In this document: positions 1 through 53,972 of the stretch, one piece after another
How the letters are laid out: every line of letters begins with the position of its first letter
Numbering within the stretch: the stretch's first letter is position 1
Assembly: GCA_041738615.1 (NCBI GenBank)
Contig: JBGSPL010000001.1
Span: forward strand, 10,706 to 74,705
From: Patescibacteria group bacterium
Lineage (GTDB): Bacteria > Patescibacteriota > CPR2 > UBA1875 > CAIMLA01
Direction of reading: 5' to 3'
Length of the DNA stretch: 64,000 nucleotides
Notes under the pieces: generated by a model
Seen by the model: only the letters and a program-made list of their open reading frames with translations
Databases searched by the model: none
What the model was told of the DNA's origin: nothing
Made by a program: the position numbers and the translations under genes

Positions 1-1511
1 GCGGCATTTACACCGTAGGCGTAGTCGGCACGGTGAATAAAATCAATCCACTGTTTATTCAGAACGACTCTGAAAGAGCGGCGAGCGCCTTGATCTTCTC
101 CGGTCTTACAAGGGTAGAAAATGGTAATCAGGTAATTCCAGATGTCGCTAAGTCCTGGGAGGTGAAGGACGATGGGAAAACTTATCTTTTTAAACTCAAG
201 GATAATGTAAGGTGGCATGACGGGACTAAACTTACAGTAGAAGATATTATTTACACCGTAGAGTTGTTGCAGAATCCAGATACAAAGACCGGACTCGAAA
301 GTGTTTGGAAGGGCGTGAAGGCAGATAGGGTTGCAGAAAATGAGGTGAAATTTACCCTTCCGGCATCCTATCCAGGTTTCCTTTCGGTGGCAAGCCAAGC
401 TATACTTCCAAAACACCTACTCGGGGCGATTGATCCGAAAAATATAAAGATTGCGGAGTTCAACAATAACCCTGTTGGTACCGGGCCTTACGAGTTTGTC
501 CGTTTTGACCAGCTAGGGAGTCAGCAGGAAGTGATACTCAGAAAGAACGAACATTTTGCTATAGCAAAACCGTACCTCGATCAAGTAAAGATAGTGATGT
601 ACGAGAATGAGACCAAAGCCTACCAGGGCTTATCGCGTAAACAGATAGATGGTGTTTTTACCATTTCGGCAAATGACTTCAAAAACCTCGCTCAGATTAG
701 TGGGTCGAGTGTAGTGGAAAAGAAGCTCCTACCAGAGTATCAAATGGTTTACTTTAACCTGAAAAATACGATTTTGTCAGATAAGGATCTGCGCCTCGCT
801 TTAACGGGAGCCGTTGATAGGCAAGAAATTATCGACAAAGTTTTGCTCGGAAACGGGGAGAAGCAGGTAGGGATGTTGCTTCCTGGTCAGCCTGGATATA
901 ACCCTAAGATCAAGGGCACCGAATATAATCCGGAAGCCAGCAAGGCGGCCCTGGACAAGCTGGGATGGGTAGCGGGGGCAGACGGCATCAGGACAAAGGA
1001 AGGAAAGAAACTGAGCCTTAGGTTAGTTTATTCGGACATGTATGAAGAGCGAGAAGACGCAAAACTTCTTAAGTCGGAGCTTATGAAGGTGGGAGTGAGT
1101 TTGCAGCTCGAGGCTGTCAGTGAAGAGAAGATCGGCTCAAATTATATAAAACCACGCAACTTTGATCTGCTTCTAGTAACACAAAACGTAGGCTACACCA
1201 ATGATTGGTATAGTCTATGGGACTCGAGTCAGATTGCCACCCCAGGAATAAATATTAGCGGTTTTAGTGACAAGTCACTCGATAGGTTTGTGCAGCAAGT
1301 CCGTAAAAGCACAGATAAGAAGTATATTGCCGATAGGCTAAAGCAAGCTGAGCAGATCGTTATCGATCAGGCACCAGTGTTCTACATCTATCGACCAACG
1401 CACCTGTCTGCCCAGTCCCCACAGCTAAAGGGCTATGCCCAAACCAAGCTTGCGCTACCAACAGACGCACTGAGCAATGTTTATCGGTGGTATCTGAACG
1501 TAAAAAGCTAA
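1..1511 (+). CDS. ABC transporter substrate-binding protein, family 5 (peptide/nickel/oligopeptide type); 5' end cut by the window edge
   Basis: ORF 33..1511 stays open in frame back to nt 3. The spacing of the SWEVKDDGKTYLFKLKDNVRWHDG and GTGPYEFVRF motifs is typical of DppA/OppA-like family-5 SBPs. Confidence 0.8.
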   Translation, partial: GIYTVGVVGTVNKINPLFIQNDSERAASALIFSGLTRVENGNQVIPDVAKSWEVKDDGKTYLFKLKDNVRWHDGTKLTVEDIIYTVELLQNPDTKTGLESVWKGVKADRVAENEVKFTLPASYPGFLSVASQAILPKHLLGAIDPKNIKIAEFNNNPVGTGPYEFVRFDQLGSQQEVILRKNEHFAIAKPYLDQVKIVMYENETKAYQGLSRKQIDGVFTISANDFKNLAQISGSSVVEKKLLPEYQMVYFNLKNTILSDKDLRLALTGAVDRQEIIDKVLLGNGEKQVGMLLPGQPGYNPKIKGTEYNPEASKAALDKLGWVAGADGIRTKEGKKLSLRLVYSDMYEEREDAKLLKSELMKVGVSLQLEAVSEEKIGSNYIKPRNFDLLLVTQNVGYTNDWYSLWDSSQIATPGINISGFSDKSLDRFVQQVRKSTDKKYIADRLKQAEQIVIDQAPVFYIYRPTHLSAQSPQLKGYAQTKLALPTDALSNVYRWYLNVKS

Positions 1512-4868: not shown

Positions 4869-6878
<2,010 letters not shown>

Positions 6879-14257: not shown

Positions 14258-17200
14258 TTGTCCGCAGCTAAGCCAAAATTTGTTCATTTGCACGTTCATA
14301 CTCATTACTCTCTCCTCGACGGGATGGGCAAAATTCCCGACTACTTGGATCGGGCGAAGGCGCTTGGTATGCCGGCGATGTCTATTACCGACCACGGTGT
14401 TATGTACGGTGCAATCGAGTTCTACAAAGAGGCCAAGAAGCGCGATATCAAACCAATCATTGGATGCGAGTGCTACGTTGCTCCACGGACACTTCACGAT
14501 AAAGAAGCCAGAATCGATAATAGGCCACACCATTTGGTACTACTTGCCAAGAATAACACCGGCTACAAGAATTTGATGAAGCTGGTTACCATCGCCCATA
14601 TCGATGGCTACTATTACAAACCGAGGATCGATAAGGATACTCTGCGGCAGCACTCGGAGGGCCTAATCGGGATGTCTGCATGTCTCAACGGGGAACCTGC
14701 GCGAAATGTTATGAATGGGGATTACGAAAAGGCAAAGGCAGCAGCTCTAGAATACGAAGAAATCTTCGGTAAAGACCACTATTATTTGGAGCTTCAGGAT
14801 CAGCCAGGTGCAGAAGAGCAAACGAGAGCCAACGAGGGCCTCAAGAAGATTGCCAAAGAAACAGGGATTGGACTTGTCGTTACAAATGATGTTCACTACG
14901 TGAACAAAGATGACGCAGAGGCTCAAGACATCCTGCTCTGCGTACAAATGGGCAAGACAGTAAACGACGAAGATCGCATGAAAATGACGATGGACAACAG
15001 TATGCGTACTTACGAGGACCTGTTGGAAGCATTTCCAGACGTTCCCGAGGCTTTCGAAAATACGGTGAAGATAGCTGAAATGTGTGATGTCAGTATAGAG
15101 CTTGGGGGCATCCTGATTCCTGACTACCCAGTCCCAGCAGGTTTCACGGTTAGTGCCTATCTGGAAAAACTTGTAAACGAGGGGGTTTCAAAACGCTACA
15201 AGGAGCGCACACCGGAGCTTGAGGAGCGTTTGAAGTACGAGCTTGGCGTGATAGAACGTATGGAATACCAGGGCTATTTCTTGATAGTTCAGGATTATGT
15301 GAACTGGGCCAAAGACCAAGGAATCATTGTAGGCCCAGGCCGCGGATCAGCGGCTGGATCAGTAGTGGCATACGCGCTAGGGATTGTAGATCTCGAACCG
15401 ATGCAGTATGACCTCCTTTTCGAGAGATTCCTAAATCCAGACCGTATATCCATGCCTGACGTAGATATGGACTTTGCGGATGACAGACGCCATGAGGTAA
15501 TCTCTTATGTAACGGAGAAGTATGGCCAGGATAAGGTGGCACAAATCATAACCTTTGGAACGATGAAGGCTCGCAATGCAATTCGCGATGTAGGACGAGC
15601 ACTCGGTATGGTTTATGGTGATGTGGACCGAGTGGCAAAGATGGTTCCTGAGGTCCTCAACATTCGTCTCAAGGAAGCCCTAGAGACAGGACCAGAGCTG
15701 AGGAAGGCATATAACGAAGAGCCGGAGATCAAGCACCTTATTGATCTAGCGATGAGACTCGAGGGTGTAGCGCGTCATAGTTCTACCCACGCTTGTGCTG
15801 TTGTGATTTCTCGTGACCCCCTGGTCGAGTATGCTCCTCTGCAAAAGGCAACCAAAGGTGATATCGCCATCAATACACAATACGAGATGCACGCGATTGA
15901 AGATCTTGGTCTGCTCAAAATGGACTTCCTGGGTCTTTCCAACCTGACTGTCCTAAACAATGCGATGCGCATAGTCCGCAAGGTATATGGCGATGAGATA
16001 GACCTTTATACCTTACCGACCGACGATAAGAAGACGTATCAACTGCTTTCAAAAGGAGAAACTACTGGTGTTTTCCAATTGGAATCTGCAGGGATGAAGC
16101 GATATATCAAAGAACTAAAGCCTACGGTTTTTGAAGATATCATAGCGATGGTTGCTCTGTATCGCCCAGGTCCTATGGAGAACATCCCTGAGTTTATTGC
16201 TCGTAAGCATGGTAAAAAAGCGATTAAGTATCAGCATCCATTGATGGAGACGGCGCTCAAGAATACTTATGGAATTACCGTATATCAGGAACAGGTCATG
16301 CAGATTTCGAAGGATCTGGGCGGGTTTACTGGGGGACAGGCAGATACTTTGCGTAAGGCTATTGGGAAAAAGATCTCAAAACTGCTCAAGCAGATGCGCA
16401 CAGAATTCGTAGACGGTGCAAAACGTGAACACGATGTACCGCCAAAACTAGGCAACGAGATCTTTGACGGTTGGGAAGCCTTTGCTTCTTACGCTTTCAA
16501 TAAATCTCACGCTGCTTGTTATGCCCTGATTTCATATTGGACAGCGTATCTGAAGGCACACTATCCGGCAGGCTTTATGGCTGCACTGATGACCTCTGAT
16601 TATGGAAATATGGATCGCATTACCATAGAGATCGACGAGTGTCAAAGAATGGGGATCGAGGTTCTTCCCCCCGATGTGAATGAATCATTTGCCGAGTTTG
16701 GCGTCGTTAAAGATACGGGTAAGATTCGTTTTGGTCTCATGGCTGTAAAGAACGTGGGTAAAGGCCCTATAGAAGCTATCCTTGCAGCTCGCGAGGAGGG
16801 TGGCAAATTTGTCTCGATTGAGGATTTTGCCCGACGTGTTCATACGTCAGAGGTCAACAAAAAGATGTTGGAGTCACTCATCAAGTGCGGTGCCATGGAT
16901 TGCCTGGGAGATCGAGGTACATTACTTTCCAATATGGAACGTATCCTAATGTTTAGTACTAAATCGCAAGGCAGCGCCGCAAGCGGGCAGATAGACCTTT
17001 TTGGTGGTCAGGGGATAGAGATGCCACCGCTCAAGCTAGAGCCAGCGCCACGGAAGCTGACAACTCGGGAGCTTCTAGGCTGGGAAAAGGAACTCCTCGG
17101 CATCTATATATCGGCGCACCCCATAAACGAGTACAAAGAGATTTTAATAAAAAATAACATTACCCCGATAGTAGAGCTCACAGAAGAAATGAATAATCAG

Positions 17201-17728
17201 ACCGTTCGGATAGGTGGAATTCTCGTTACCTTGCAGAAGATACAGACCAGAAATAAGCAAACTATGTTTTTTGCGGGATTCGAAGACCACACTGGAAAGA
17301 CAGAGCTGATTGTGTTCCCGAAAATTATCGAAGAAGACGGGATGGACAACTGGGTGATTGGAAAGGCGCTGCTTGTCAGAGGTAAGGTAAGCACCAAAGA
17401 TGCGATGGTAAAGGTAATTGTAGACAAGGCATTAACACTGGAGGGGAGCAATATGATAGGAGAAGACGTTCAGGTGGTGGACCCGCTAATCAATCAATCA
17501 GTTCAGATGGATTCAGATGGGACTGTAAGTATCTATATTCCACGGGGAACGGTGAACGAGGCTTTAAATGACATCAAATATAAGCTAGCAGCTAACAAGG
17601 GAGAAACCCCGGTCGTTGTTTATGTACCAAATGGCGCCACTGGACCCAAGAAGGTGAAGCTACCATTCGGAATCGCCTATAGTGAGAAGCTAGCTGAATC
17701 GATAAGAAAACGATTAAACGCGAACTAA
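14258..17728 (+). CDS. dnaE: DNA polymerase III alpha subunit DnaE (TTG start)
   Basis: PHP domain HLHVHTHYSLLDG, polymerase core, and an OB-fold near the C-terminus. GGGGG SD 4 nt upstream of the TTG. Confidence 0.95.
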   Translation: MSAAKPKFVHLHVHTHYSLLDGMGKIPDYLDRAKALGMPAMSITDHGVMYGAIEFYKEAKKRDIKPIIGCECYVAPRTLHDKEARIDNRPHHLVLLAKNNTGYKNLMKLVTIAHIDGYYYKPRIDKDTLRQHSEGLIGMSACLNGEPARNVMNGDYEKAKAAALEYEEIFGKDHYYLELQDQPGAEEQTRANEGLKKIAKETGIGLVVTNDVHYVNKDDAEAQDILLCVQMGKTVNDEDRMKMTMDNSMRTYEDLLEAFPDVPEAFENTVKIAEMCDVSIELGGILIPDYPVPAGFTVSAYLEKLVNEGVSKRYKERTPELEERLKYELGVIERMEYQGYFLIVQDYVNWAKDQGIIVGPGRGSAAGSVVAYALGIVDLEPMQYDLLFERFLNPDRISMPDVDMDFADDRRHEVISYVTEKYGQDKVAQIITFGTMKARNAIRDVGRALGMVYGDVDRVAKMVPEVLNIRLKEALETGPELRKAYNEEPEIKHLIDLAMRLEGVARHSSTHACAVVISRDPLVEYAPLQKATKGDIAINTQYEMHAIEDLGLLKMDFLGLSNLTVLNNAMRIVRKVYGDEIDLYTLPTDDKKTYQLLSKGETTGVFQLESAGMKRYIKELKPTVFEDIIAMVALYRPGPMENIPEFIARKHGKKAIKYQHPLMETALKNTYGITVYQEQVMQISKDLGGFTGGQADTLRKAIGKKISKLLKQMRTEFVDGAKREHDVPPKLGNEIFDGWEAFASYAFNKSHAACYALISYWTAYLKAHYPAGFMAALMTSDYGNMDRITIEIDECQRMGIEVLPPDVNESFAEFGVVKDTGKIRFGLMAVKNVGKGPIEAILAAREEGGKFVSIEDFARRVHTSEVNKKMLESLIKCGAMDCLGDRGTLLSNMERILMFSTKSQGSAASGQIDLFGGQGIEMPPLKLEPAPRKLTTRELLGWEKELLGIYISAHPINEYKEILIKNNITPIVELTEEMNNQTVRIGGILVTLQKIQTRNKQTMFFAGFEDHTGKTELIVFPKIIEEDGMDNWVIGKALLVRGKVSTKDAMVKVIVDKALTLEGSNMIGEDVQVVDPLINQSVQMDSDGTVSIYIPRGTVNEALNDIKYKLAANKGETPVVVYVPNGATGPKKVKLPFGIAYSEKLAESIRKRLNAN

Positions 17729-17747
17729 AATCAATCTATATTTTTGG

Positions 17748-17768
17748 GAGCCCGCGAGGGCTCTTTTT
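17748..17768 (+). terminator. rho-independent terminator after dnaE
   Basis: GAGCCC-GCGA-GGGCTC hairpin followed by TTTTT. Confidence 0.8.
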
Positions 17769-17779
17769 GGATAAAAGTC

Positions 17780-17808
17780 TTGTGCAAAGAGGGGATTTGT
17801 GTTATAAT
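17780..17808 (+). promoter_or_regulatory. promoter with extended -10 (TTGTGC-17-TGtTATAAT) driving GC-rich cassette 1
   Basis: TATAAT at 17803-17808 preceded by TGn. Weak -35 TTGTGC 17 nt upstream. Confidence 0.5.
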
Positions 17809-17932
17809 CTTTTTTGTCAATCTGTACCCAAACCAATCGATTGGAGGATGAGGCCGATGCCTCACGATGCAAGTCCGTAGGATGGTCCTGCCCAAAGAGG
17901 GGACCAGAAACTACGGAAGTAATAGGGGAACC

Positions 17933-18139
17933 ATGTTCCAGACGGAAGATGAGCGGCGTATGTCGCTCGAACAGGCGCTTCGTGAAGTCGAGTACTTCAT
18001 CGCCAAGGGCGAAGCCTATATTAGGGAGCACGTTGATCACCTGGTGAAGGTTCTTACCCCGCATCACGAGGAGCCGGCTATCCAGGAGTTCGTCTCCAAC
18101 TACCAGATCGAGCTTGCAACCGAGACCGTCGAGTCGTAG
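17933..18139 (+). CDS. hypothetical small protein (68 aa) in GC-rich cassette 1
   Basis: AGGGGAA SD, then ATG at 17933. The predicted protein has helical character (MSLEQALREVEYFIAKGEAYIREHVDHLVKV...). The ORF-track start at 17867 lacks an SD. Confidence 0.45.
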   Translation: MFQTEDERRMSLEQALREVEYFIAKGEAYIREHVDHLVKVLTPHHEEPAIQEFVSNYQIELATETVES

Positions 18140-18157
18140 CCGAAAGGAACTGTAGTC

Positions 18158-18376
18158 ATGACGGGGTCCACTTGCACTGAAAGCACGCATGTCCCGCTTG
18201 CAGAGGCTGATCCGCTCACCCTCGCGCGTCGCATGATGCGACACTACGTGGAGGGTGAACACAACCGTCCGATGTCGGACATCTGCAAGCGAGTCTACGC
18301 AGGCTGGATGCGTGATCACGTCAGTGATCCCGACATCGCCGCCTTCGTGGAACTTCACGGTCTTCAGGCTGCCTAG
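18158..18376 (+). CDS. hypothetical small protein (72 aa) in GC-rich cassette 1
   Basis: AAAGGAA SD upstream of the ATG, 18 nt after the previous stop. No family recognised. Confidence 0.4.
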   Translation: MTGSTCTESTHVPLAEADPLTLARRMMRHYVEGEHNRPMSDICKRVYAGWMRDHVSDPDIAAFVELHGLQAA

Positions 18377-18527
18377 CGGTCTGATCGATTAGGTTTACTG
18401 ACTTCCAGGCAACCCGTGATGGGTCCCTGAGGAAGATAGAGGTTGGTAAGGTGGAATACACTGTCCCGTAGGTGATTGTTCCGAGCTTTCGGAGCATGAT
18501 ATGGCGCAGTCCCACCCGACCCATTAT

Positions 18528-18561
18528 GAGCACAAATGCGAAAGAGCGTTTGTGCTCTTTT
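18528..18561 (+). terminator. rho-independent terminator closing cassette 1
   Basis: GAGCACAAA-(12 nt loop)-TTTGTGCTC hairpin followed by TTTT. Confidence 0.7.
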
Positions 18562-18578
18562 CGTTATAGACAAAATGA

Positions 18579-18607
18579 TTGACTATCGGCCAATATTTAG
18601 CTATAAT
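18579..18607 (+). promoter_or_regulatory. sigma70-like promoter for rplS (TTGACT-17-TATAAT)
   Basis: TTGACT at 18579-18584 and TATAAT at 18602-18607. Confidence 0.6.
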
Positions 18608-18665
18608 AGTTCTCGCGTATTTAGTCCGCGAACAACCATAAATTTCGAACGGACAGGGAGTAGTT

Positions 18666-19340
18666 ATGAAAGCAATCGAAGCTATGAATCAGAAAATGTT
18701 GAAGAACGTACCAGAGCTAAAGCCTGGTGATACTGTTCGCGTACACACCAAGATCATCGAGGGTAGCAAGGAACGTATCCAGGTATTTGAGGGAGTTGTA
18801 CTTAGGGTAAAGGGTGGTGGAATCAATCAGACTTTCACTGTTCGTAAGCTTTCGTATGGTATTGGCGTAGAGCGTACTTTCCTTATTCAGTCACCAAAGG
18901 TAGCAAAGATCGAAATAAAGAAGAGAGCCAACGTTCGTCGTGCATATCTTACTTATCTACGCGCACTTCGTGGTAAGGCAGCCAAGCTTAAGGACCTCAA
19001 GTTTGACGCCCTGGCAGCAAACTATGTAGAACCAGAGCTTACAGCAGAGGATCTCGCGCCAGCAGCTGAGGAAATTACCGACGAGGCAATCACAGAGATT
19101 ATTGCGGAGGAGGCAGCAGAGGAAGCTGTTATTTCAGAAGAGGTTTCTACTGAAGACATCGCAGAAGCTGAGAATAGCGAAGAGGCCAAGGATGAGCCCA
19201 CTGACGCCGCTGAGACAGATCACCAGGTTGCCCAGGAAGAGGAAGTAGAGGCTGGAATTGAAAAAGCCGAAGCAGACCTTGAAAAGGGTAAGGATGGTGA
19301 AGGAGCCACAGCCGAGAAAACAGTCGAAGACGTACAATAA
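18666..19340 (+). CDS. rplS: 50S ribosomal protein L19 with a roughly 110-aa acidic C-terminal extension
   Basis: The N-terminal ~115 aa match L19 ([22 protein letters not shown]...). The C-terminus is E/A/D-rich and low-complexity. Confidence 0.9.
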
Positions 19341-19355
19341 TTATTACTTTAAAAA

Positions 19356-19377
19356 GAGCCCAGACGGGCTCTTTTTT
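19356..19377 (+). terminator. rho-independent terminator after rplS
   Basis: GAGCCC-AGAC-GGGCTC hairpin followed by TTTTTT. Confidence 0.8.
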
Positions 19378-19394
19378 GATGGTATAATCAATCT

Positions 19395-20015
19395 ATGAAA
19401 AGACCCAACCTCAAAAGAGAAAAACAGCTTTGGTCGGAAGGCATACTAAATATTGGGGGTATTGACGAAGCGGGGCGTGGTGCCTGGGCAGGACCAGTAG
19501 TCGCGGCCGTGGTCGTGCTACCAGAAGGCCACAAGCAGCACCGTAAGGTCGCTGATTCTAAGTTGCTCTCTGCCGCACAAAGAGCCGAGCTTTATGAATT
19601 TATTACAGACAACGCGCTAGACTTTGGAATTGGTATTGTCTCGCACCAAGTTATTGACGAGATAGGGATCCTAGCTGCCACGAAACTTGCAGCAAAACAG
19701 GCAGTCGAAATGCTAAGAGACCCGCCAGAATACTTGCTTTGTGACGCATTAGATCTAAATCAACAGATATCAGTGAGCCAGGAAGCTATCATAAAGGGTG
19801 ATCAAAAGATTTATTCAATTTCTTGTGCTTCTATTCTAGCTAAGGTTACCAGAGATAATCTTATGTCTTCCTTAGGCGGAGAGTATGATTGTTATGAATT
19901 CTCCAGGCATAAAGGCTATGGGACCAAGTTGCATCGGGAGAATCTACGCAAATACGGGGTTTCAGACATACATAGACTTAGCTATAAGCCAGTGAAGGCG
20001 CTTCTCGGTGAGTAG
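19395..20015 (+). CDS. rnhB: ribonuclease HII
   Basis: GIDEAGRGAWAGPVVAA catalytic motif. Confidence 0.9.
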   Translation: MKRPNLKREKQLWSEGILNIGGIDEAGRGAWAGPVVAAVVVLPEGHKQHRKVADSKLLSAAQRAELYEFITDNALDFGIGIVSHQVIDEIGILAATKLAAKQAVEMLRDPPEYLLCDALDLNQQISVSQEAIIKGDQKIYSISCASILAKVTRDNLMSSLGGEYDCYEFSRHKGYGTKLHRENLRKYGVSDIHRLSYKPVKALLGE

Positions 20016-33305: not shown

Positions 33306-33334
33306 TTGAAATAATTCCATTTTTGGCTTAGAAT
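33306..33334 (+). promoter_or_regulatory. sigma70-like promoter (TTGAAA-17-TAGAAT) for the PurH-domain cassette
   Basis: TTGAAA at 33306-33311 and TAGAAT at 33329-33334. Confidence 0.55.
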
Positions 33335-33368
33335 GCCCTCACGCTGTCAGCTGGAGGGAGGGTTGTTA

Positions 33369-33971
33369 ATGGAAAAGCGACATGCGTTGCTCTCTGTCTT
33401 TGACAAGACGGGGATTGTTGAGTTCGCAACTGGACTCGTGAGTTTCGGTTTCGTGTTGATTGCCTCAGGGGGTACTGCGGCGGTTTTGCGCGAGGCTGGG
33501 CTCGAAGTGATTGATACGGCCGACCTTGTTGGTGGCCCGATTCTCGGGCATCGTGTCGTCACGCTGTCTCGCGAGATTCACGCCGGTATCCTGGCCAAGG
33601 ACAACGAGGAGGACCGAGCGGAGCTTGCACGGCTCGGCATCAACTTCATCGATCTCGTGGGGGTAGACCTTTACCCGCTCGAAGGTATGGTCGAGAAGGA
33701 AGGGGTCACAGAGGCGGAGGTCATCGAGATGACTGATGTCGGTGGTCCGACGATGCTACATGCGGCCGCAAAGGGTCGCCGCATTGTGGTCACACCTCAG
33801 GACTACGATGAGGTCCTCGACTGGCTCGGTCAGGACGAGCCTGACCCTGTCGAGTTCCGGCGGAATCTGGCCTTCGTGGCAGAACTCACGGCACTGGAGC
33901 ACCTCGAAGCCTCGGCTGCGTACATCGCCAAGGTTGCGGGGATCGAATTCGTCGACGACGAGGAGGACTAG
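33369..33971 (+). CDS. stand-alone PurH-type IMP cyclohydrolase (MGS-like) domain protein
   Basis: Clear similarity to the N-terminal domain of bifunctional PurH (ALLSVFDKTGIVEFA, ASGGTA, GGPILGHRVVTL..HAGIL, VDLYPLE, DVGGPTMLHAAAKG). GGAGGGAGGG SD 5 nt before the ATG at 33369. No AICAR-transformylase domain follows. Confidence 0.75.
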   Translation: MEKRHALLSVFDKTGIVEFATGLVSFGFVLIASGGTAAVLREAGLEVIDTADLVGGPILGHRVVTLSREIHAGILAKDNEEDRAELARLGINFIDLVGVDLYPLEGMVEKEGVTEAEVIEMTDVGGPTMLHAAAKGRRIVVTPQDYDEVLDWLGQDEPDPVEFRRNLAFVAELTALEHLEASAAYIAKVAGIEFVDDEED

Positions 33972-46420: not shown

Positions 46421-48511
46421 ATGCCTAGAGAATATTCACTCGAAAACACAAGAAACATCGGAATTGCCGCTCATATCGATGCTGGTAAAACCACTGTAAC
46501 CGAGCGTATCCTATACTATACTGGTCGTACTCATAAGATCGGTGAAGTGCACGAGGGTGCAGCTACTATGGACTGGATGGAGCAGGAGCAGGAGCGTGGT
46601 ATTACTATCACATCCGCAGCGACTACTTGTTTTTGGGCTGGTCATCGTATCAACATTATTGACACACCAGGTCACGTAGACTTTACCGTAGAGGTAGAGC
46701 GTTCTTTGCGCGTATTAGACGGTGCGGTCGTAGTATTTGACGGTAAAAATGGTGTAGAGCCTCAGTCCGAGACTGTATGGCGCCAGGCCGATAAATATCA
46801 TGTTCCACGTATCGCTTTTGTAAACAAACTTGACGCTATCGGCGGCGATTTCTATATGTCGCTGGAATCTATCAAGGAACGTCTCGGTGCCAATGCAGTT
46901 GCTATGCAGCTGCCTATCGGTATGGAGTCTGGCTTCTCTGGTGTTGTAGACCTCATGGAGATGCGTTCGATCAACTACGGTAACGAGGATATGGGCAAAG
47001 AGCAGCATATCGCCGAGATTCCTGCTGACATGCTCGACAAGGCCAATGAATATCGCGCTATTATGGTAGAGAAAATTGCCGAAACCGACGACGCTCTTCT
47101 CGAGAAGTTCTTCGACGGCAAGGAAATCACTGTACCAGAACTCAAGGCTGCGCTTCGCAAGGCTACTATCGCCAACGAAATCGTGGGTGTTTTTGCCGGT
47201 ACTGCGCTTAAAAACAAGGGTGTTCAGCCAATGCTTGACGCCGTTATCGATTATTTGCCAAACCCGCTCGAGGTTCCTGCCGCTCATGGTGAGGACCCAA
47301 AGACTGGCGAGGAAGTAGCAGTAGAGAGTACCGATGATGGTCCTTTCTGTGGTCTTGTTTTCAAGATTGCTGCCGACCCATTCGTCGGTAAGCTTGCTTT
47401 CTTGCGTGTTTATCGTGGTCGCCTTGCTTCTGGAAGTTACGTTCTAAACGTAGCCACTGGGGAGAAAGAGCGTATCGGACGTATCGTTCGCATGCACGCC
47501 AACACCCGCGAAGAAGTGAGTGAAGTTTTCTCAGGCGAGATCGCTGCTGCAGTAGGTCTCAAGAATACTCTTACCGGTAACACTATTTGTGATCCTACCC
47601 ACCCAGTATTGCTCGAGAATATTACTTTCCCAGAGCCTGTGATTCAGGTTGCCATCGAGCCAAAGACCAAGGCCGACCAAGAGAAGATGGGCATCGCCCT
47701 CTCTCGTCTCGCCGAGGAAGATCCTACTTTCCGCGTCCATACCGATGAAGAAACAGGCCAGACTATCATAGCTGGTATGGGTGAGCTTCACCTCGACATT
47801 CTTGTCGACCGTATGAAACGCGAGTTCAAGGTAGAAGCAAACGTAGGTAAACCTCAGGTTGCTTACCGTGAGTCTATCAAGGGCAAGGTTAAACAGGAAG
47901 GTAAGTTCGTACGTCAATCTGGTGGACGTGGTCAATATGGTCATGTTTGGATCGAGATTGAGCCTAACGAAGAAGGTCTAGGATTCGAGTTCATCAATAA
48001 GATTGTTGGTGGCGCGATTCCAAAGGAATACATCAATCCAGTACAGAACGGTATCCGTGAAGCACTAGACAACGGTGTTATTGCTGGTTATCCAGTAGTA
48101 GACGTCAAGGTTACTCTCTATGACGGTTCATTCCACGAGGTAGACTCGAACGAAATGGCCTTCAAGATTGCTGGTTCCATGGCGCTTCAGGAGGGTGTCC
48201 GCAAGGCGACTCCTATTATTCTAGAACCAATTATGAAGGTAGAAGTTACCGTACCGGAAGAGTATATGGGTGATATTATGGGAGACCTCAACTCGAAGCG
48301 TGGACGCATTCAGCAGATGTCGGACCGCGGCAATGCCAAGATCGTAGACGCTTTCGTCCCACTAGCTGAGATGTTTGGCTACGCTACAAACTTGCGTTCT
48401 ATGACTCAGGGTCGTGGCACTAGTACAATGGAATTTGACCACTACGAAGAAGTTCCAGGAAACGTGGCTGCTGAGATTATCGCGAAGCGTGGTAAGAAAC
48501 AGGCAGAATAA
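46421..48511 (+). CDS. fusA: elongation factor G
   Basis: G-domain motifs [18 protein letters not shown], and domains II-V. Confidence 0.97.
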
Positions 48512-48518
48512 CCCCCAT

Positions 48519-48555
48519 CACGTCATTCCGGACCTGATCCGGAATCTATACAAAA
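48519..48555. repeat. hairpin repeat R2 (cGTCATTCCgg-ACCTGAT-ccGGAATCtatacaaaa)
   Basis: ATTCCGG/CCGGAAT stem starting 8 nt after the fusA stop. Same flanks as R1. Confidence 0.6.
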
Positions 48556-48580
48556 AGACCTCAGAAATGAGGTCTTTTTG
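48556..48580 (+). terminator. rho-independent terminator after fusA
   Basis: AGACCTCA-GAAA-TGAGGTCT followed by TTTT. Confidence 0.8.
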
Positions 48581-48590
48581 ATATCTAGTA

Positions 48591-48625
48591 TATTTGTCGT
48601 TCCTGGTCGTAAGCCAGGGATCCTC
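48591..48625. repeat. hairpin repeat R3 (tatttGTCgTTCCtgg-TCGTAAG-ccagGGAtCC)
   Basis: About 30 of 34 positions match R4 at 52078..52108. Confidence 0.55.
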
Positions 48626-48659
48626 CCCTTGGCTTGCCTTGCTAAAGCAAGGCATTCAC

Positions 48660-48689
48660 GATACTTTTGTCCATAGTCACAAAAGTATC
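48660..48689. repeat. perfect 11-bp-stem hairpin GATACTTTTGT-(8 nt)-ACAAAAGTATC
   Basis: Perfect inverted repeat. Sister element at 52214..52241. Confidence 0.6.
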
Positions 48690-48878
48690 CAAAAAGACAT
48701 TATAAATGCGGCGGTCTGAGGACCTTCGCAGCGGACAGTCATGCCTGAGCGGCTTGGGTTTAGTCAAATTGCGATCTCTCACAAATCTATAGGATTGGCC
48801 GTTGTAGTACACGCATTTTATTAATCTCACGTCCTAGGCCCTCCAGACACGTTACAGGGCAAGTTAACGTCAAAATCA

Positions 48879-48907
48879 TTGATTATTGCTCTATTTTGGC
48901 ATATAAT
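48879..48907 (+). promoter_or_regulatory. near-consensus promoter (TTGATT-17-TATAAT) at the head of GC-rich cassette 2
   Basis: TTGATT at 48879-48884 and TATAAT at 48902-48907. Confidence 0.6.
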
Positions 48908-48960
48908 CGCGGTCAGTAGTTTACAGAGCATGGGTTGACTTGCCCAGAGAGGGGAATCGT

Positions 48961-49131
48961 ATGCCGCAAGAAACTGCTGCTCCGGCTTGGATCGGATGGG
49001 TGCTCCTTCTAATCCCCACCGCCATGATCTTCATTGGACCCATGGCGTACAAGAGGCGCGATGACGTAAGAGCTTCGTGGCAAAGGCCGTCAGAGGATGA
49101 GATTAACCGATCGATTGGGTATCGCGGTTAG
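48961..49131 (+). CDS. small hydrophobic protein (56 aa, one TM helix), cassette 2
   Basis: GAGAGGGG SD 7 nt before the ATG at 48961. Sequence WIGWVLLLIPTAMIFIGPMAY followed by a basic tail. Confidence 0.4.
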   Translation: MPQETAAPAWIGWVLLLIPTAMIFIGPMAYKRRDDVRASWQRPSEDEINRSIGYRG

Positions 49132-49196
49132 CCCCGTCTGATAGGTAGTCAAAGGCGAGCGCGCCCCCCGGTGCGCACCTGACGAGAAGAGGGGAC

Positions 49197-49328
49197 ATGA
49201 AGAGGATACTGAGTGATTTGTGGTGGACCTTGGTGGTCTACCTGGTCTGCTCCATTGTCTGGGCCGTTTGTGGCCTGGCTTCGGTCGGGATCGTTCCTGA
49301 CCAGATTGGCGCCGACGAAGGCGCCTAG
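49197..49328 (+). CDS. small hydrophobic peptide (43 aa, one TM helix), cassette 2; not in the ORF track
   Basis: ATG at 49197 after AAGAGGGG. MKRILSDLWWTLVVYLVCSIVWAVCGLASVGIVPDQIGADEGA. Confidence 0.35.
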   Translation: MKRILSDLWWTLVVYLVCSIVWAVCGLASVGIVPDQIGADEGA

Positions 49329-49347
49329 CGCCAGAATGGAGTAGACC

Positions 49348-49593
49348 GTGAGTAAGGTCATAGTCTCCCTGCCGGGAGGTAAGGCGATATTCACAGAGGA
49401 GCTTCCTCGGGAAGCAACGACGGTTTCCGTCGAGTATGCCCAGAGGCTCGTGGATCAGCTCGGGAAGACCGACGGGAGGAACTACCAGCTGTGCACTAAG
49501 CCTCAAGTCGCGAGCGACGAGGACGAGGAGCGCAATCTGCTTCCTGGAGATGTTCTCATCAGCATCGCCGATTTTGGTCCTCGTACAAACTGA
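49348..49593 (+). CDS. hypothetical protein (81 aa, GTG start), cassette 2
   Basis: GGAG SD 6 nt before the GTG. No family recognised. Confidence 0.4.
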   Translation: MSKVIVSLPGGKAIFTEELPREATTVSVEYAQRLVDQLGKTDGRNYQLCTKPQVASDEDEERNLLPGDVLISIADFGPRTN

Positions 49594-49658
49594 GGCCGTC
49601 CACGGCACATCCAAACGCATGTTGGGATGTCGCCGGTGGCGGCCTCTCAACATATATA

Positions 49659-49687
49659 TTGTCAAGAATGCTTATCCATAGTAAGAT
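49659..49687 (+). promoter_or_regulatory. candidate internal promoter (TTGTCA-17-TAAGAT)
   Basis: AT-rich 60-nt spacer inside the GC-rich cassette. Moderate match to consensus. Confidence 0.35.
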
Positions 49688-49753
49688 ATCGCCATCGACG
49701 TTAGTGTCACTTGTGTGCGCCTAGCGGCGTGCACCTACCAAGGGGGGGCGGGG

Positions 49754-50233
49754 ATGATGAAACGCTGGTTACTCGACGGCTTGCAAGTGCTTGTGTTGTC
49801 AGCCGTACTGACAGCGGCTTGTTACGCGCCGGTTTTTGCCGGCATCTGGCTCTACGGGGTCATCGGGGGCTTGAACCTGTTCGTACTGTTCCTGGCTGTG
49901 GCTGTTGTGGCCATTCGCATCGCACTCTCACCACATGGTTTCGTTGAGCGTTCAGCGGACCTGTGGCTTGCAGCTGTGGGCATGTCGCTCGCGGCGCTTG
50001 AGATGTGGAAGCCGCTTCTCACTACAGTCGTCTGCTGCGAGTACTTCATGTTCATGGCAGTGCTCGGCTACGGTGCTCCAGTCTGGTTGCTCGGACTTCC
50101 GGTCGCGATTTGGCCGGTACTGCCACTGCTGGTTTTGGCCAGCACGTTGCTTCTCGGGATGTTCATCATGCTGGAGGCAGAGGGCGACGAATTCTCCGAC
50201 ACCAGCGAGCTGGCGCGGTCGTTCGGCCACTAG
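49754..50233 (+). CDS. hypothetical polytopic membrane protein (about 159 aa, 4-5 TM helices), cassette 2
   Basis: AGGGGGGG SD before the ATGATG at 49754. Strongly hydrophobic with an acidic C-terminus. Confidence 0.5.
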   Translation: MMKRWLLDGLQVLVLSAVLTAACYAPVFAGIWLYGVIGGLNLFVLFLAVAVVAIRIALSPHGFVERSADLWLAAVGMSLAALEMWKPLLTTVVCCEYFMFMAVLGYGAPVWLLGLPVAIWPVLPLLVLASTLLLGMFIMLEAEGDEFSDTSELARSFGH

Positions 50234-50304
50234 GGACACCAGTGTCTCAGGTTCCGGAGGTCCTGCAACGTAGGTTGTGGGGCCTCCGGAAGAGAGAAAA
50301 ATAC

Positions 50305-50333
50305 TTGCACAAAGTAGTGATATATAGTAATAT
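50305..50333 (+). promoter_or_regulatory. promoter for tuf (TTGCAC-17-TAATAT)
   Basis: TTGCAC at 50305-50310 and TAATAT at 50328-50333, with a 110-nt AT-rich leader. Confidence 0.45.
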
Positions 50334-50444
50334 TTGTAAGCCAAATGAATACATATCCACCACGTCACGAAGGACGGGGGGATTTAAAGTGTATTACAAG
50401 AATATTAAACAAAATTAACAAAGTAAAACTTACAAGGAGACCAA

Positions 50445-51620
50445 ATGGCTGAAGTTTATAAGAGAGACAAGCCCCATGTAAACGTTGGTACTATCGGACA
50501 CGTTGACCATGGTAAGACAACCCTGACCGCTGCAATTACATCGGTACTTGCAAAGAAAGGCCTAGCTACCGCTAGAAAGTTTGCCGACATCGACAACGCT
50601 CCAGAAGAGCGAGAACGTGGTATTACTATTGCTACTTCTCACCAAGAGTACGAGACAGAGAAGCGTCATTATGCGCACGTTGACTGTCCTGGACATGCCG
50701 ACTACGTAAAGAACATGATCACTGGTGCTGCACAGATGGACGGCGCTATCTTGGTTGTGGCAGCTACTGACGGTCCTATGCCTCAGACTCGTGAGCACAT
50801 CCTACTTGCTTACCAAGTTGGTGTTCCACAGATTGTAGTTTACATGAACAAATGTGACATGGTTGATGATGCAGAGATGCTTGACCTCGTCGAGATGGAA
50901 ATTCGTGAGCTTCTTACTAAGTACAAATATGATGGTGACAACACACCTATCATTCGTGGTTCAGCCCTCAAGGCGCTTGAAGGCGATGCTAAGTACGAAG
51001 AGTCAATCATGGAGCTTATGAACGCTCTTGATACATACATCCCAGAGCCTACTCGTGATACCGACAAACCTTTCATGATGGCTGTAGAGGACGTTTTCTC
51101 TATCAAGGGTCGTGGTACAGTTGCTACTGGTCGTATCGACCGTGGTGTTGTTAAGATCAACGACGAAGTAGAAATCATTGGTATTAAGCCTACTCGCAAG
51201 ACTGTTGTTACTGGTATCGAGATGTTCAAGAAACAGCTCGAGCAGGGACAAGCTGGTGACAATGCTGGTTTGCTACTACGCGGTATTGAAAAGAACGACA
51301 TTGAGCGTGGTATGGTTCTAGCAAAGTCTGGTTCTATCACACCTCATACAGAGTTTGACGCTGAAGTATACGTTCTTACCAAAGAAGAAGGCGGACGACA
51401 TACTCCTTTCTTCAAGGGTTACAAACCTCAGTTCTACATCCGTACAACTGACGTAACTGGTGAGATCGAATTCGAAGGCGAAATGGTTATGCCTGGCGAT
51501 AACGTCAAGATGGCCGTTAAGCTTATCCAGCCAATCGCTATCGAAGAGGGTCTTCGCTTCGCAATCCGCGAAGGTGGCCGTACAGTTGGCGCTGGTGTAG
51601 TTACCAAGATCAAGAAATAG
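50445..51620 (+). CDS. tuf: elongation factor Tu
   Basis: [18 protein letters not shown] motifs and domains II/III. Confidence 0.97.
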
Positions 51621-51651: not shown

Positions 51652-51713
51652 TTATAATAACTAAAACTTATAGATAGCAGGGCACTTTGACCCTGGGAAC
51701 TAGAAGGAGACAC

Positions 51714-52034
51714 ATGGCTGAGAAAAACGAAAAACAGAGGATCCGAATCAAACTAAAGGCGTACGACAACAAGATTATCGACCAGTCGACAACACAGATA
51801 ATCGAGACAGCAGTGCGCAGTGGTGCTAAGGTGGCGGGACCTATCCCACTACCAACAGATAGGACTCCTATCACTGTAAACCGCGCGAGCAACGTCAACA
51901 AGAACGCACGAGAACAGTTTGAGATGCGGGTGCACAAGCGCCTCATAGATATCACTGACTTCACAGCGAAGACAGTGGACAGTCTGATGAGTCTCTCACT
52001 TCCAGCCGGAGTAGACATCGAAATCAAAATGTAA
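51714..52034 (+). CDS. rpsJ: 30S ribosomal protein S10
   Basis: GAAGGAGA SD before the ATG at 51714. S10 signature [11 protein letters not shown]. The ORF-track start at 51687 lacks an SD. Confidence 0.95.
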
Positions 52035-52043
52035 TAGTAAAAA

Positions 52044-52064
52044 AGCCCCTTCGGGGGCTTTTTT
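52044..52064 (+). terminator. rho-independent terminator immediately after rpsJ
   Basis: AGCCCC-TTCG-GGGGCT followed by TTTTT. Confidence 0.8.
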
Positions 52065-52077
52065 GATTACCGGTATA

Positions 52078-52108
52078 TTGTCATTCCTGGTAGTAAGTCA
52101 GGGACCCA
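52078..52108. repeat. hairpin repeat R4 (tGTCATTCCtgg-TAGTAAG-tcagGGAcCC)
   Basis: Near-identical to R3. Confidence 0.55.
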
Positions 52109-52118
52109 GCCTTTCCAA

Positions 52119-52146
52119 CGTCATTGCGAGCGAAGCGCGGCAATCT
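52119..52146. repeat. hairpin repeat R8 (cGTCATTgCgagc-GAAGC-gcgGCAATCtccc)
   Basis: Same architecture, with ATTGC/GCAAT replacing ATTCC/GGAAT. Confidence 0.45.
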
Positions 52147-52153
52147 CCCTGTC

Positions 52154-52178
52154 CGTCATTCCATCGTAGACTGGAATC
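52154..52178. repeat. hairpin repeat R7 (cGTCATTCCatc-GTAGAC-tGGAATCc)
   Basis: ATTCCA/TGGAAT stem. Confidence 0.55.
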
Positions 52179-52213
52179 CATTACTAGCGGATTAATCTTA
52201 GCGTTATTCCTTC

Positions 52214-52241
52214 GATACCTTTCTCTTGAAAGAAAGGTATC
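52214..52241. repeat. perfect 11-bp-stem hairpin GATACCTTTCT-CTTGAA-AGAAAGGTATC
   Basis: Perfect inverted repeat with the same GATAC...GTATC ends as 48660..48689. Confidence 0.6.
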
Positions 52242-52379
52242 CCAAAGTTCAAGAAAAATCGAACTCCCTCGTCTCTGTACGAAATTTTACTGAGCAAGCT
52301 CGCAATAATTTCTAGCATTCGACGATAGCCGGGCGCGCGGCACCGAGCGATTTTTCGGGGGAGTTGGAAGCGAATATTA

Positions 52380-52408
52380 TTGACAAAACGGCAATTTAGT
52401 ATTAAATT
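52380..52408 (+). promoter_or_regulatory. promoter at the head of GC-rich cassette 3 (TTGACA-17-TAAATT)
   Basis: Perfect -35 at 52380-52385. The TAAATT -10 is identical to the rpoB promoter -10. Confidence 0.5.
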
Positions 52409-52482
52409 ATAGTGTCGTCATAGCCCCGATGGCTATTTCGACGCACGTTGACGTTAATTCACGACACCAGGAGGTGTTTGCG

Positions 52483-52935
52483 GTGCCAAACGCTGGTCCT
52501 CGCACCGAAAAGACGGCCGGCGTGAAGCGGCCGAACTGTTTTTGGGTGGCTGTCTTCGAGGTGCTTACCGGTGGGAAGAAGTACCGCGTTGATTTCGCGG
52601 TGAGTCGTTCACAGAAGGACGCCTATCTGGCGGATGGTCACGATTCCTCTGTCGATCGCAACTACTCTCATCTGATATGCGCAAAGCTCAGGGATGAGCA
52701 CGGAGTTATCGTTGAGATTCTTGCACCGAGCCAGTTTCGCTTGATTGAGTTCCATTCACGCGATGCCGGTTCGATGTCCACCGAGGAGTTGGCCCGAATC
52801 ATGCGACGGACCGAGAAGAACACCGCCGAGACTGCTGCAATCGTGGCTGCTCACAACGATAAGAAGGCGGCCAAAGAGAAGGCTAAACGCCAGAGGATAA
52901 CCCGTACTGGAGATGGGCAAGCCGAGCTCTTCTAG
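52483..52935 (+). CDS. hypothetical protein (150 aa, GTG start), cassette 3 gene A
   Basis: AGGAGG 8 nt before the GTG at 52483, in frame with the ORF-track ORF 52429..52935. Lys/Ala-rich C-terminus. No family recognised. Confidence 0.45.
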   Translation: MPNAGPRTEKTAGVKRPNCFWVAVFEVLTGGKKYRVDFAVSRSQKDAYLADGHDSSVDRNYSHLICAKLRDEHGVIVEILAPSQFRLIEFHSRDAGSMSTEELARIMRRTEKNTAETAAIVAAHNDKKAAKEKAKRQRITRTGDGQAELF

Positions 52936-53010
52936 CCTTTGGCTCGCGCTCACAAGGATTTGCGTTTAGGGATGTGCCCAAACGTGAAACAGCACAGAGA
53001 GGGGAGTCGC

Positions 53011-53334
53011 GTGAACGAGCTGGAGCAGTTCTACGCGCATTTGCGGTTCTTCATCCGTGAAGGGCCGAAGTACGTCGTTCCTGGCAAGGAGAGTTGCCCC
53101 GAGGTTACCCTCGACACTCTCGTAAGGCAGGGCATGGAGCTCGAGCCTGAGCTTTGGGGCAATGAGACACAGACTCGCGAGATCATCTTTGGACTTCGCG
53201 GCATGGACCTCGCAGCCTGGGAGGTTTTTGCTCGCAAGAATCCCGAGGGTTTCAAGCGGCTCAAGTCGGCCTACGACTACGAGGAGGCGTTCCATATCGC
53301 GATGTCTCGCGAAGAGGCCGCCAAGAAACGCTAG
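53011..53334 (+). CDS. hypothetical protein (107 aa, GTG start), cassette 3 gene B
   Basis: GAGGGGAG SD 4 nt before the GTG at 53011, in frame with ORF 52939..53334. No family recognised. Confidence 0.4.
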   Translation: MNELEQFYAHLRFFIREGPKYVVPGKESCPEVTLDTLVRQGMELEPELWGNETQTREIIFGLRGMDLAAWEVFARKNPEGFKRLKSAYDYEEAFHIAMSREEAAKKR

Positions 53335-53344
53335 TGACGTCAAC

Positions 53345-53393
53345 GTCGACGACCGTGGGCGGTGGGGGAAACCCCGCTGCCCACGTCGACCAA
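53345..53393. repeat. 49-bp GC-rich hairpin-forming direct repeat, copy 1
   Basis: GTCGACGACCGTGGGCGGTGGGGGAAACCCCGCTGCCCACGTCGACCAA. GTCGACG/CGTCGAC outer stem, imperfect inner stem around a GAAA loop. Confidence 0.8.
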
Positions 53394-53460
53394 TTTAATA
53401 CTCTATATGGTACGAACAGTGCCACCAACGACGTCAAACCCCAGGAAGGGGTGTGGCTTT

Positions 53461-53883: not shown

Positions 53884-53889
53884 CTTGAC

Positions 53890-53938
53890 GTCGACGACCG
53901 TGGGCGGTGGGGGAAACCCCGCTGCCCACGTCGACCAA
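53890..53938. repeat. 49-bp GC-rich hairpin-forming direct repeat, copy 2
   Basis: 49 of 49 identical to copy 1. Ends 5 nt before the rplC promoter -35. Confidence 0.8.
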
Positions 53939-53943
53939 AATAG

Positions 53944-53972
53944 TTGACATTTGTGAGTATTTTATATACAAT
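53944..53972 (+). promoter_or_regulatory. promoter for the rplC-led S10/spc block (TTGACA-17-TACAAT)
   Basis: TTGACA at 53944-53949 and TACAAT at 53967-53972, followed by a ~120-nt leader. Confidence 0.55.

Follow-up and report, generated by a model that had tools for sequence, protein, structure and literature searches.

What occupies the 937-bp gap between dnaE and rplS in the genome of a Patescibacteria group bacterium (GenBank assembly GCA_041738615.1, contig JBGSPL010000001.1)? We analyzed a 64,000-nt stretch of this contig, which we refer to as "the window". On the plus strand of the gap, positions 17770–18565 of the window hold two adjacent, small open reading frames (ORFs), ORF1 and ORF2, with expression signals of their own. 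An earlier note on this DNA read the segment as a compact two-gene module of the toxin-antitoxin (TA) or phage-addiction shape. The explanation that we favor is a different one, and we consider it probable though well short of certain: the module is a vertically inherited, lineage-restricted bicistronic operon of a Candidatus Saccharibacteria genome, and its paralogous small proteins would form a heterodimeric, protein-binding factor expressed under a conserved leader.

The signals that the earlier note had listed, i.e., a dnaE terminator, an extended −10 promoter, two ORFs with Shine-Dalgarno sequences, an intrinsic terminator, and an rplS promoter, are all present at or near the positions given there (Table 1). 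Two of them were missed by automated scans. The consensus terminator scan does not report the dnaE hairpin, probably because a G-T extension of the stem consumes part of the T run, and the promoter scan missed the module promoter because its −35 element matches the consensus at only three of six positions. The predicted transcription start of the module lies near G17816, and the extended −10 promoter would drive a transcript of ~745 nt that ends at a strong intrinsic terminator. The segment is also richer in G+C than either neighbor, as the earlier note had stated: the values are 55.6% for ORF1 and 59.8% for ORF2, versus 47.1% for dnaE and 47.6% for rplS, with ~56% for the module overall. The peak G+C in 400 nt is 58%, about three standard deviations above the window mean (47.4%; standard deviation 3.5%), and the module is one of eight such regions in 64 kb. 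Judged from its sequence, the segment is a real, self-contained, compact, autonomously transcribed two-gene module.

Is the pair conserved elsewhere? A search of species-representative genomes with the DnaE C-terminus retrieved only metagenome-assembled genomes of Candidatus Saccharibacteria and Patescibacteria. One of these, GCA_964501135.1 (L001/L002; hereafter "L001"), carries ORFs of 63 and 77 aa in its dnaE-rplS gap, and these are the same pair. The two genomes have the gene order NUDIX-Ham1-CutA-dnaE-(two ORFs)-rplS-rnhB-UPF0102-nusA-clpB in common, so the conserved neighborhood that the earlier note had proposed to look for is found in a second genome with the same synteny. A sequence identical to L001 was recovered independently in a Logan assembly of run ERR3839025 (L012). 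For neither ORF2 nor S10 of the window is an identical protein on record on another contig. DnaE of the window and DnaE of L001 are 97.5% identical as proteins, with an identity at fourfold degenerate sites of only 0.36; the remaining flanking genes are 37–51% identical at such sites. Fourfold sites are therefore essentially saturated, meaning that conservation between the window and L001 at the nucleotide level reflects selection. By this measure, the two genomes are not close strains.

Against this level of divergence, both ORFs have the signature of protein-coding genes. First, all indels relative to L001 are multiples of 3 (9 and 6 nt in ORF1; 12 and 3 nt in ORF2). Second, identity at the first, second, and third codon positions is 0.82/0.85/0.53 for ORF2 and 0.59/0.59/0.39 for ORF1. 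The third-position identity of ORF2 equals that of the flanking housekeeping genes (0.48–0.58), indicating that the pair has diverged together with the rest of the genome. Third, both frames are open in both genomes, although the ORF1 proteins (63 aa in L001) are just 35% identical, with conserved ends. The G+C content of ORF1 at its three codon positions is 0.65/0.28/0.74. The substitution pattern identifies both ORFs as protein-coding, with strong purifying selection on ORF2 and weak purifying selection on ORF1. In the public annotation, ORF1 is a 90-aa protein (P0001) that starts at the ATG at 17867. The same codon is AAG in L001, so the conserved start is the one at 17933, which has a ribosome-binding site (RBS) and gives the 68-aa protein of the earlier note. 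A minus-strand ORF of 214 aa (17714–18358) was also considered; it is split into 122 and 81 aa in L001, and we regard it as a shadow of the G+C-rich genes on the plus strand.

The earlier note had held out a structured RNA as the reading to adopt if the pair were neither conserved nor coding, and the comparative coding signature is present in both ORFs. If the segment were a large structured non-coding RNA, with G+C-rich sequence set in a genome richer in A+T and with incidental ORFs, this would fit the base composition, the separate promoter and terminator, a minimum free energy z-score of −4.3 for the plus strand, the conserved blocks in the leader and the 3′ untranslated region (UTR), and a GUGA-loop hairpin that recurs in the 3′ regions of relatives. 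Yet the central 440 nt have a 3-periodic pattern of substitution and in-frame indels only, the minus strand has nearly as good a z-score (−3.6), and the ORF bodies are the least conserved parts at the nucleotide level, with their frames nevertheless open in both genomes. Positions 17000–19400 have no match on either strand in Rfam 15 at E ≤ 1, and the whole window has only tRNA matches at the Rfam gathering thresholds. We regard this possibility as extremely improbable.

The earlier note had recognized no family for either protein, and the libraries we searched add none. Against Pfam, NCBIfam, PHROGs, and PADLOC, both ORFs and all six members of the family described below give nothing but noise at E ≤ 1; sequence searches of the PDB with both proteins are empty. 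Word-indexed homology searches of 5.8 billion proteins with ORF1, ORF2, and an ORF1 profile returned only the window itself and L001. An exhaustive hidden Markov model (HMM) search of 1.8 billion representatives with the ORF2 pair added only P0005 and P0006 (E = 1e-6 and 4e-5). These proteins are encoded on short Joint Genome Institute metagenome contigs (L010 and L011), each time by a gene immediately preceding rplS. Among the 1.8 billion representatives, the family has only four distinct members; its carriers are the window, L001, L010, and L011, a few related Saccharibacteria that have it at one fixed position, beside rplS. A metagenome scan with the ORF2 profile gave no further members, and a literature search found nothing specific to the module. 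ORF2 is the better-conserved member of the family, with 69–74% identity to its L001 counterpart (P0003) and 44% identity to P0005 and P0006.

ORF1 and ORF2 resemble each other. They align over most of their length, with a common C-terminal segment, [DH]PxIxAFxxx[HY], and hhalign supports the match (P = 0.003). Using a database of 2507 six-frame ORFs from the window and the fetched loci, the first match outside the family for the ORF2-family HMM is ORF1 of L001 (E = 1.9e-4), and the ORF1 HMM matches the ORF2 homologues of L010 (E = 1.3e-5) and L011 (E = 0.01). These profile comparisons identify ORF1 and ORF2 as paralogues. L010 and L011 each have one family gene, preceded by a different, Cys-containing ORF and followed by a 45-aa membrane ORF. 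The pair in the window and L001 is thus a tandem duplication of a single ancestral gene, of which other relatives retain one copy.

The block that spans the end of ORF1 and the start of ORF2 is 87–97% identical between the window and L001, synonymous sites included, and a TCGTAG..GAAAG motif is found ahead of the ORF2 homologue in both L010 and L011 as well. Predictions give no stable conserved fold for this block, which most simply would be a translation-initiation or coupling region. We also observed that the upstream ORF and the ORF2 homologue share a reading frame in all four genomes (window 17933–18376, L001 5791–6234, L010 2–406, L011 1–405). In the window and L001, the two are separated in frame by a TAG and six sense codons; in L010 and L011, there is a second in-frame TAG between the ORFs. 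The shared frame is probably due to chance, the odds for two independent pairs being about 1 in 9.

What might the two proteins do? AlphaFold2 (AF2) models built from the six-sequence alignment are three-helix structures, with a predicted local distance difference test score of 75 for ORF2 and 81 for ORF1, the core of the latter being above 90. The structural check proposed in the earlier note thus yielded models, but these gave no lead to function, since Foldseek found no structural neighbor with E < 1 in the PDB or BFVD. The isoelectric point (pI) is 4.7 for ORF1 and 5.9 for ORF2; all six family members are acidic (pI 4.7–6.0) and hydrophilic, and the grand average of hydropathy is −0.56 and −0.37 for the two ORFs. 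We propose that the two cistrons encode paralogous, acidic, cytoplasmic proteins of ~8 kDa that are predicted to be three-helix bundles. By analogy with the habit of paralogous helical proteins, the ORF1 and ORF2 products may assemble with each other, and they would bind protein rather than nucleic acid because the net charge is negative in every family member.

Do other Saccharibacteria have the same genes in this position? In four genomes with decreasing identity to the window in the DnaE C-terminus (L004, 78%; L005, 72%; L006 and L008, 43% each), dnaE and rplS are separated by 840–1170 bp containing one or two small ORFs on the plus strand. In L003, there is a small-ORF module after dnaE, and rplS is not adjacent. 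A comparison of this junction among relatives, which the earlier note had suggested, therefore shows small ORFs in the gap of each, differing in content. The ORFs of the relatives have no family matches and no detectable similarity to the window family in the 2507-ORF database, and hhalign comparisons for L003, L004, and L005 are not significant. The exception is a 92-aa ORF in L008 with a marginal hhalign match to the window family (P = 0.0025). The two ORFs of L004 appear to be related to each other, with R-x-G-[LI]-x-[LI]-x-WSGN in common.

The L008 ORF also bears on the TA reading. In a type II TA or addiction module, one small protein would be a toxin and the other a neutralizing, autoregulating antitoxin. 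The compact two-gene shape with its own promoter and terminator is as expected for such a module, as is the foreign-looking composition, and the L008 ORF has a sub-threshold match to the Pfam family VAPB_antitox (E = 0.007; 17.5 bits versus a cut-off of 27.9) that overlies an SDIxKxxY motif weakly common to ORF2. The partners, however, are paralogues of similar size, not a toxin plus a DNA-binding antitoxin, and the acidity of both makes a DNA-binding antitoxin unlikely. Neither has a match in Pfam, NCBIfam, PHROGs, PADLOC, or the PDB, or with Foldseek; L010 and L011 carry a single copy; and the genes have a fixed, vertically inherited chromosomal position with no copies elsewhere, so that their distribution is neither patchy nor multi-copy. 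A ribbon-helix-helix, CopG-like antitoxin, prompted by the SDIxKxxY motif, was rejected, given an hhalign P of 0.69 to CopG and the acidity of the proteins. Similarly, both ORFs are hydrophilic and lack the hallmark of type I toxins, a short hydrophobic membrane peptide; an additional membrane ORF of 43–45 aa is present in L003, L010, and L011. Searches of phage, plasmid, and viral-contig sequences produced nothing significant (top match: an actinophage in tblastn, E = 0.5), no border repeats were found flanking the module, and the 937-bp gap contains no recombinase ORF. The compact coding pair of the earlier note therefore stands, and the suggestion of a TA or addiction pair is not supported, because the proteins are acidic paralogues of no known family and show no sign of mobility. 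We consider a type II TA module very unlikely.

The variable content of the gap raises another possibility, i.e., that the module was acquired horizontally or is an exchangeable cassette, with the gap serving as a variable slot for G+C-rich small genes drawn from an external pool, such as phage, a host actinobacterium, or other Saccharibacteria. L003, L004, L005, L006, and L008 carry different small ORFs there, without detectable homology, and in all but L008 the G+C content at third codon positions (GC3) of the slot ORFs is 0.50–0.77, versus 0.27–0.50 in flanking genes. Other G+C-rich islets of orphan genes occupy the fusA-tuf and rpsJ-rplC gaps of the window. Several findings argue in the opposite direction. 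Divergence between the orthologs of the window and L001 matches that of the genome at large, which speaks against recent transfer. Searches of phages, plasmids, viral contigs, metagenomes, and the 1.8 billion proteins turned up no donor, and there are no integrases, repeats, or target duplications. The L008 ORF, in turn, is possibly a highly diverged homologue, which would favor fast divergence in place over replacement. Moreover, GC3 is near 0.7 in the pairs of both the window and L001 despite a third-position divergence at the level of housekeeping genes. High GC3 retained over saturating divergence implies an anomaly that is old and maintained, not a recent import undergoing amelioration. 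Candidate causes of this maintenance are biased gene conversion linked to recombination, selection acting on mRNA structure, and repeated exchange with an unsampled, G+C-richer pool. On balance, an exchangeable cassette seems unlikely to us.

We return to the preferred explanation, an old, vertically inherited operon, and to the signals that would control it. In the promoter, TGTTATAAT and TTGTG are invariant in L001, whereas the surrounding spacer has diverged and neutral sites are saturated. The module terminator is identical in L001, and a similar hairpin is found in L004. At the position of the dnaE terminator, L001 has a different hairpin, GGAAGTCC..GGACTTCC plus T5, indicating that the stem has been kept by compensatory change. 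The promoter and leader of rplS are conserved in L001, L004, L010, and L011.

The leader of the module contains 30-nt blocks that are 90% identical to L001 despite the saturation of fourfold sites, and its indels, of 1 and 2 nt, show that it is non-coding. Its predicted structure includes a hairpin, GAGGC-CGAU-GCCUC, at 17850–17863, and a nested hairpin, UCCGUAG[UGGUCC...GGACCA]CUACGGA, at 17874–17917, the latter in both the window and L001. In the consensus fold, GUACCC (17823–17828) may pair with the ribosome-binding region, GGGGAAC / AGGGGA (17924–17929). This fold, derived from two distinct sequences only, has 21 predicted pairs, of which one is compensatory, one has a one-sided change, and the rest are invariant; the thermodynamic z-scores of the window and L001 leaders are −2.0 and +0.06. 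A role for the leader in the control of translation is plausible, and the leader, which includes the RBS, would probably set translation rate or mRNA stability. A more specific proposal, compatible with the operon explanation, is that the leader is a riboswitch-like cis-regulatory RNA that senses a ligand or protein and gates ORF1 by sequestering its RBS. The conserved blocks, the non-triplet indels, the nested hairpin in both genomes, and the pairing of GUACCC with the RBS region are consistent with this idea. We nevertheless hold it to be doubtful, in view of the two distinct sequences with their single compensatory pair, the z-scores, and the absence of an Rfam match. In addition, the window, the fetched loci, and a DNA-pattern scan of metagenomes yielded no further copy of the leader, and the leaders of the other slot modules have no significant similarity to it except for the ribosome-binding context GAGGGGAA. 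Also in this region, a 19-nt direct repeat (16/19 matches; 17777–17795 and 17885–17903) links the promoter spacer to the leader hairpin (..CAAAGAGGGGA); as the repeat is not maintained in L001, it is probably due to chance.

The 3′ UTR is conserved in its first 50 nt, which include AGGTTTACTGACT (18391–18403) and a hairpin, ACCC-GUGAU-GGGU (18412–18424). Its middle part has diverged. The conserved part (18391–18424) resembles the LLMTRxDLR segment of the 43- to 45-aa membrane ORF, a single-helix protein (..hydrophobic..L[LM]MTR[AT]DLR..WV..) encoded after the module in L003 (6572–6703), L011 (408–545), and L010 (~410–590). The window and L001 keep only a GLLT[SP]R stretch, in frame after the ORF2 stop codon and without a start codon. 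The conserved stretch may be a remnant of the membrane ORF or an RNA element. Just upstream of the module terminator, several relatives with differing ORFs have a GUGAG-loop hairpin (ACGYCGUGAGRCGU) followed by CUAGGGGC/GCCCCUAG; the window has a different hairpin at this position, UCCGA-GCUU-UCGGA (18480–18493). A long-range helix between 17830–17841, in the leader, and 18384–18396 is predicted in both the window and L001 (P about 0.8–0.9) from differing sequences (AAUCGAU:AUCGAUU and CCGGA:UCCGG, respectively), with similar closures in L003–L005. A short palindrome occurs both in the leader and after the ORF2 stop codon (window, ATCGAT(T) at 17837–17844 and 18383–18390; L001, CCGGA/TCCGG at 5695–5699 and 6237–6241). 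We did not retain the helix as evidence: shuffling of duplex energies gives p = 0.1–0.7, and a 7-bp match is expected by chance for 117 × 100 nt, which makes it a weak lead. The paired palindromes could reflect 5′-3′ RNA pairing or paired protein-binding sites, and are not statistically significant.

Several points weigh against the operon explanation. The proposed function draws on modeled fold class and charge alone; the AF2 alignments comprise six sequences only, and the fold class lends no functional lead, there being no Foldseek neighbor at E < 1. For the leader, there are two distinct sequences, one compensatory pair, and weak thermodynamic support. Lastly, the GC3 of the module (0.67–0.77, versus 0.42–0.50 in neighboring genes) looks foreign, which a simple model of vertically inherited, ordinary genes fails to explain.

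The composition of the module is not unique within the window. In most bacteria, fusA and tuf are adjacent, as are rpsJ and rplC. Here, each pair is separated by an islet with three orphan ORFs (Table 1). The ORFs of the fusA-tuf islet have no Pfam or PHROG match; those of the rpsJ-rplC islet have no family matches, and viral contigs contain no relatives of them. The terminators of fusA and rpsJ are each followed closely by a repeated palindrome, GTATAT(T)TGTCRTTCCTGGTMGTAAGYCAGGGA (~48594–48620 and ~52078–52104; 24/27 identical), and a repeated hairpin, GTCATTCCTGG..CAGGGA, lies at the 5′ edges of both islets and is absent from the dnaE-rplS module. Further hairpins, GTCATTSC...GSAATC (GTCATTCC..GGAATC), at 48512–48550 and 52120–52180, have the look of extragenic repeats of the repetitive extragenic palindrome or miniature inverted-repeat transposable element type. 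A gene for a 212-aa protein with an MGS-like domain (33333–33971; Pfam E = 4e-14; G+C about 55–60%) lies shortly before tRNA-Leu (34094); its composition is as atypical as that of the islets. A G+C peak at 1601–2050 is accounted for by six plus-strand tRNA genes at 1583–2171 (Leu-GAG, Val-TAC, Phe-GAA, Gly-GCC, Cys-GCA, and Leu-TAA). Downstream of the module, ribosomal protein L19, the rplS product, is 213–231 aa long in the window, L001, L004, L005, L008, L010, and L011; the surplus over the normal domain of ~115 aa is a long, highly acidic (E/D/A-rich) C-terminal extension.

Table 1. Coordinates of the dnaE-rplS module, its boundaries, and the other features discussed (window positions unless another locus is named)
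Feature	Position	Strand	Description
dnaE	14258–17728		Stop codon TAA 17726–17728
dnaE intrinsic terminator	17748–17768	+	GAGCCC-GCGA-GGGCTC (17748–17763), T5 (17764–17768); upstream module boundary; read directly from the sequence
Module promoter (predicted)	17780–17808	+	Weak −35 TTGTGC (17780–17785), 17-nt spacer, extended −10 TGtTATAAT (17800–17808)
5′ leader	17816–17932	+	~117 nt, non-coding, conserved
ORF1	17933–18139	+	68 aa; preceded by AGGGGA (17924–17929)
ORF1/ORF2 junction	18119–18163	+	ORF1 end, 18-nt spacer with RBS GAAAGGA (18143–18149), ORF2 start
ORF2	18158–18376	+	72 aa
3′ UTR	18377–18527	+	150 nt
Module intrinsic terminator	18528–18561	+	12-bp stem (18528–18557), 6-nt loop, then T tract TTTTCGTT
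rplS promoter and leader	18579–18665	+	TTGACT-17-TATAAT (18579–18607), 11/12 consensus matches; downstream boundary, outside module
rplS	18666–19340	+	
fusA-tuf islet	48512–50444		G+C about 56–60%; fusA 46421–48511, tuf 50445–51620
fusA-tuf islet orphan ORF	48940–49131	+	63 aa
fusA-tuf islet orphan ORF	49348–49593	+	81 aa
fusA-tuf islet orphan ORF	49715–50233	+	172 aa, multi-pass hydrophobic
rpsJ-rplC islet	52035–54090		G+C-rich; rpsJ 51687–52034, rplC 54091–54714; interrupts usual S10-operon adjacency
rpsJ-rplC islet orphan ORF	52429–52935		168 aa
rpsJ-rplC islet orphan ORF	52939–53334		131 aa
rpsJ-rplC islet orphan ORF	53362–53883		173 aa
GUGAG-loop hairpin	L001 ~6346–6370; L004 ~2932–2958; L003 ~6730–6750; L011 ~568–600		

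A speculative idea, to which we give little credence at present, is that the dnaE-rplS gap is one of several "expression slots", together with the fusA/tuf and rpsJ/rplC islets, in which conserved scaffolding (promoter, RBS, and terminator) would serve fast-evolving or exchangeable orphan genes of high GC3. If true, this would point to an active process, such as biased gene conversion, cassette exchange, or selection on mRNA structure, and possibly to functions in the interaction of an epibiont with its host. Should the pattern be general, it would inform how new genes originate in, or enter, the reduced genomes of host-dependent organisms, and where they are kept. Taken by itself, the dnaE-rplS module is a single locus of modest interest: it adds one orphan small-protein family, with two paralogues, to the uncharacterized lineage-specific genes of Patescibacteria, and removes a tentative TA call. 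More unusual is that such slots, G+C-rich and filled with orphan genes, recur next to core genes of translation and replication.

How does the module compare with known systems? Like the type II TA operons RelBE, VapBC, and ParDE, it consists of two short, adjacent genes on the same strand, which are compactly arranged, have a promoter of their own, and are atypical in composition. It differs from them in that the partners are paralogous, similar in size, acidic, and of no known family, and in that the genes are vertically inherited at a single locus, with one copy in some relatives. Its leader is similar to the 5′ leaders of ribosomal protein genes and riboswitches in being conserved, non-coding, and ~120 nt long, with nested hairpins and an included RBS; unlike them, it matches no Rfam family and is represented by two distinct sequences.

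For the proteins, a further comparison can be made. The theta subunit of DNA polymerase III, HolE, and its phage P1 counterpart, HOT, are small three-helix accessory proteins of about 70–76 aa that act by binding a partner protein. The size, the three-helix bundle, the proposed partner binding, and the adjacency of the module to dnaE are all reminiscent of HolE and HOT. In contrast, no sequence or structural similarity to them was detected (none at E < 1 with Foldseek against the PDB), and the module is transcribed from a promoter of its own, separately from dnaE. We consider this comparison a lead only. The orphan small-protein genes specific to lineages of Patescibacteria, or the Candidate Phyla Radiation, are also comparable: like them, ORF1 and ORF2 are short, unannotated, confined to a narrow clade, devoid of Pfam domains, and fast-evolving (35% identity for ORF1 versus 97.5% for DnaE). 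What sets the pair apart from such genes is an unusually complete set of conserved signals (the extended −10 promoter, the 117-nt leader, and the strong terminator), a fixed slot beside dnaE and rplS, and a GC3 about 20–30 points above that of the genome.

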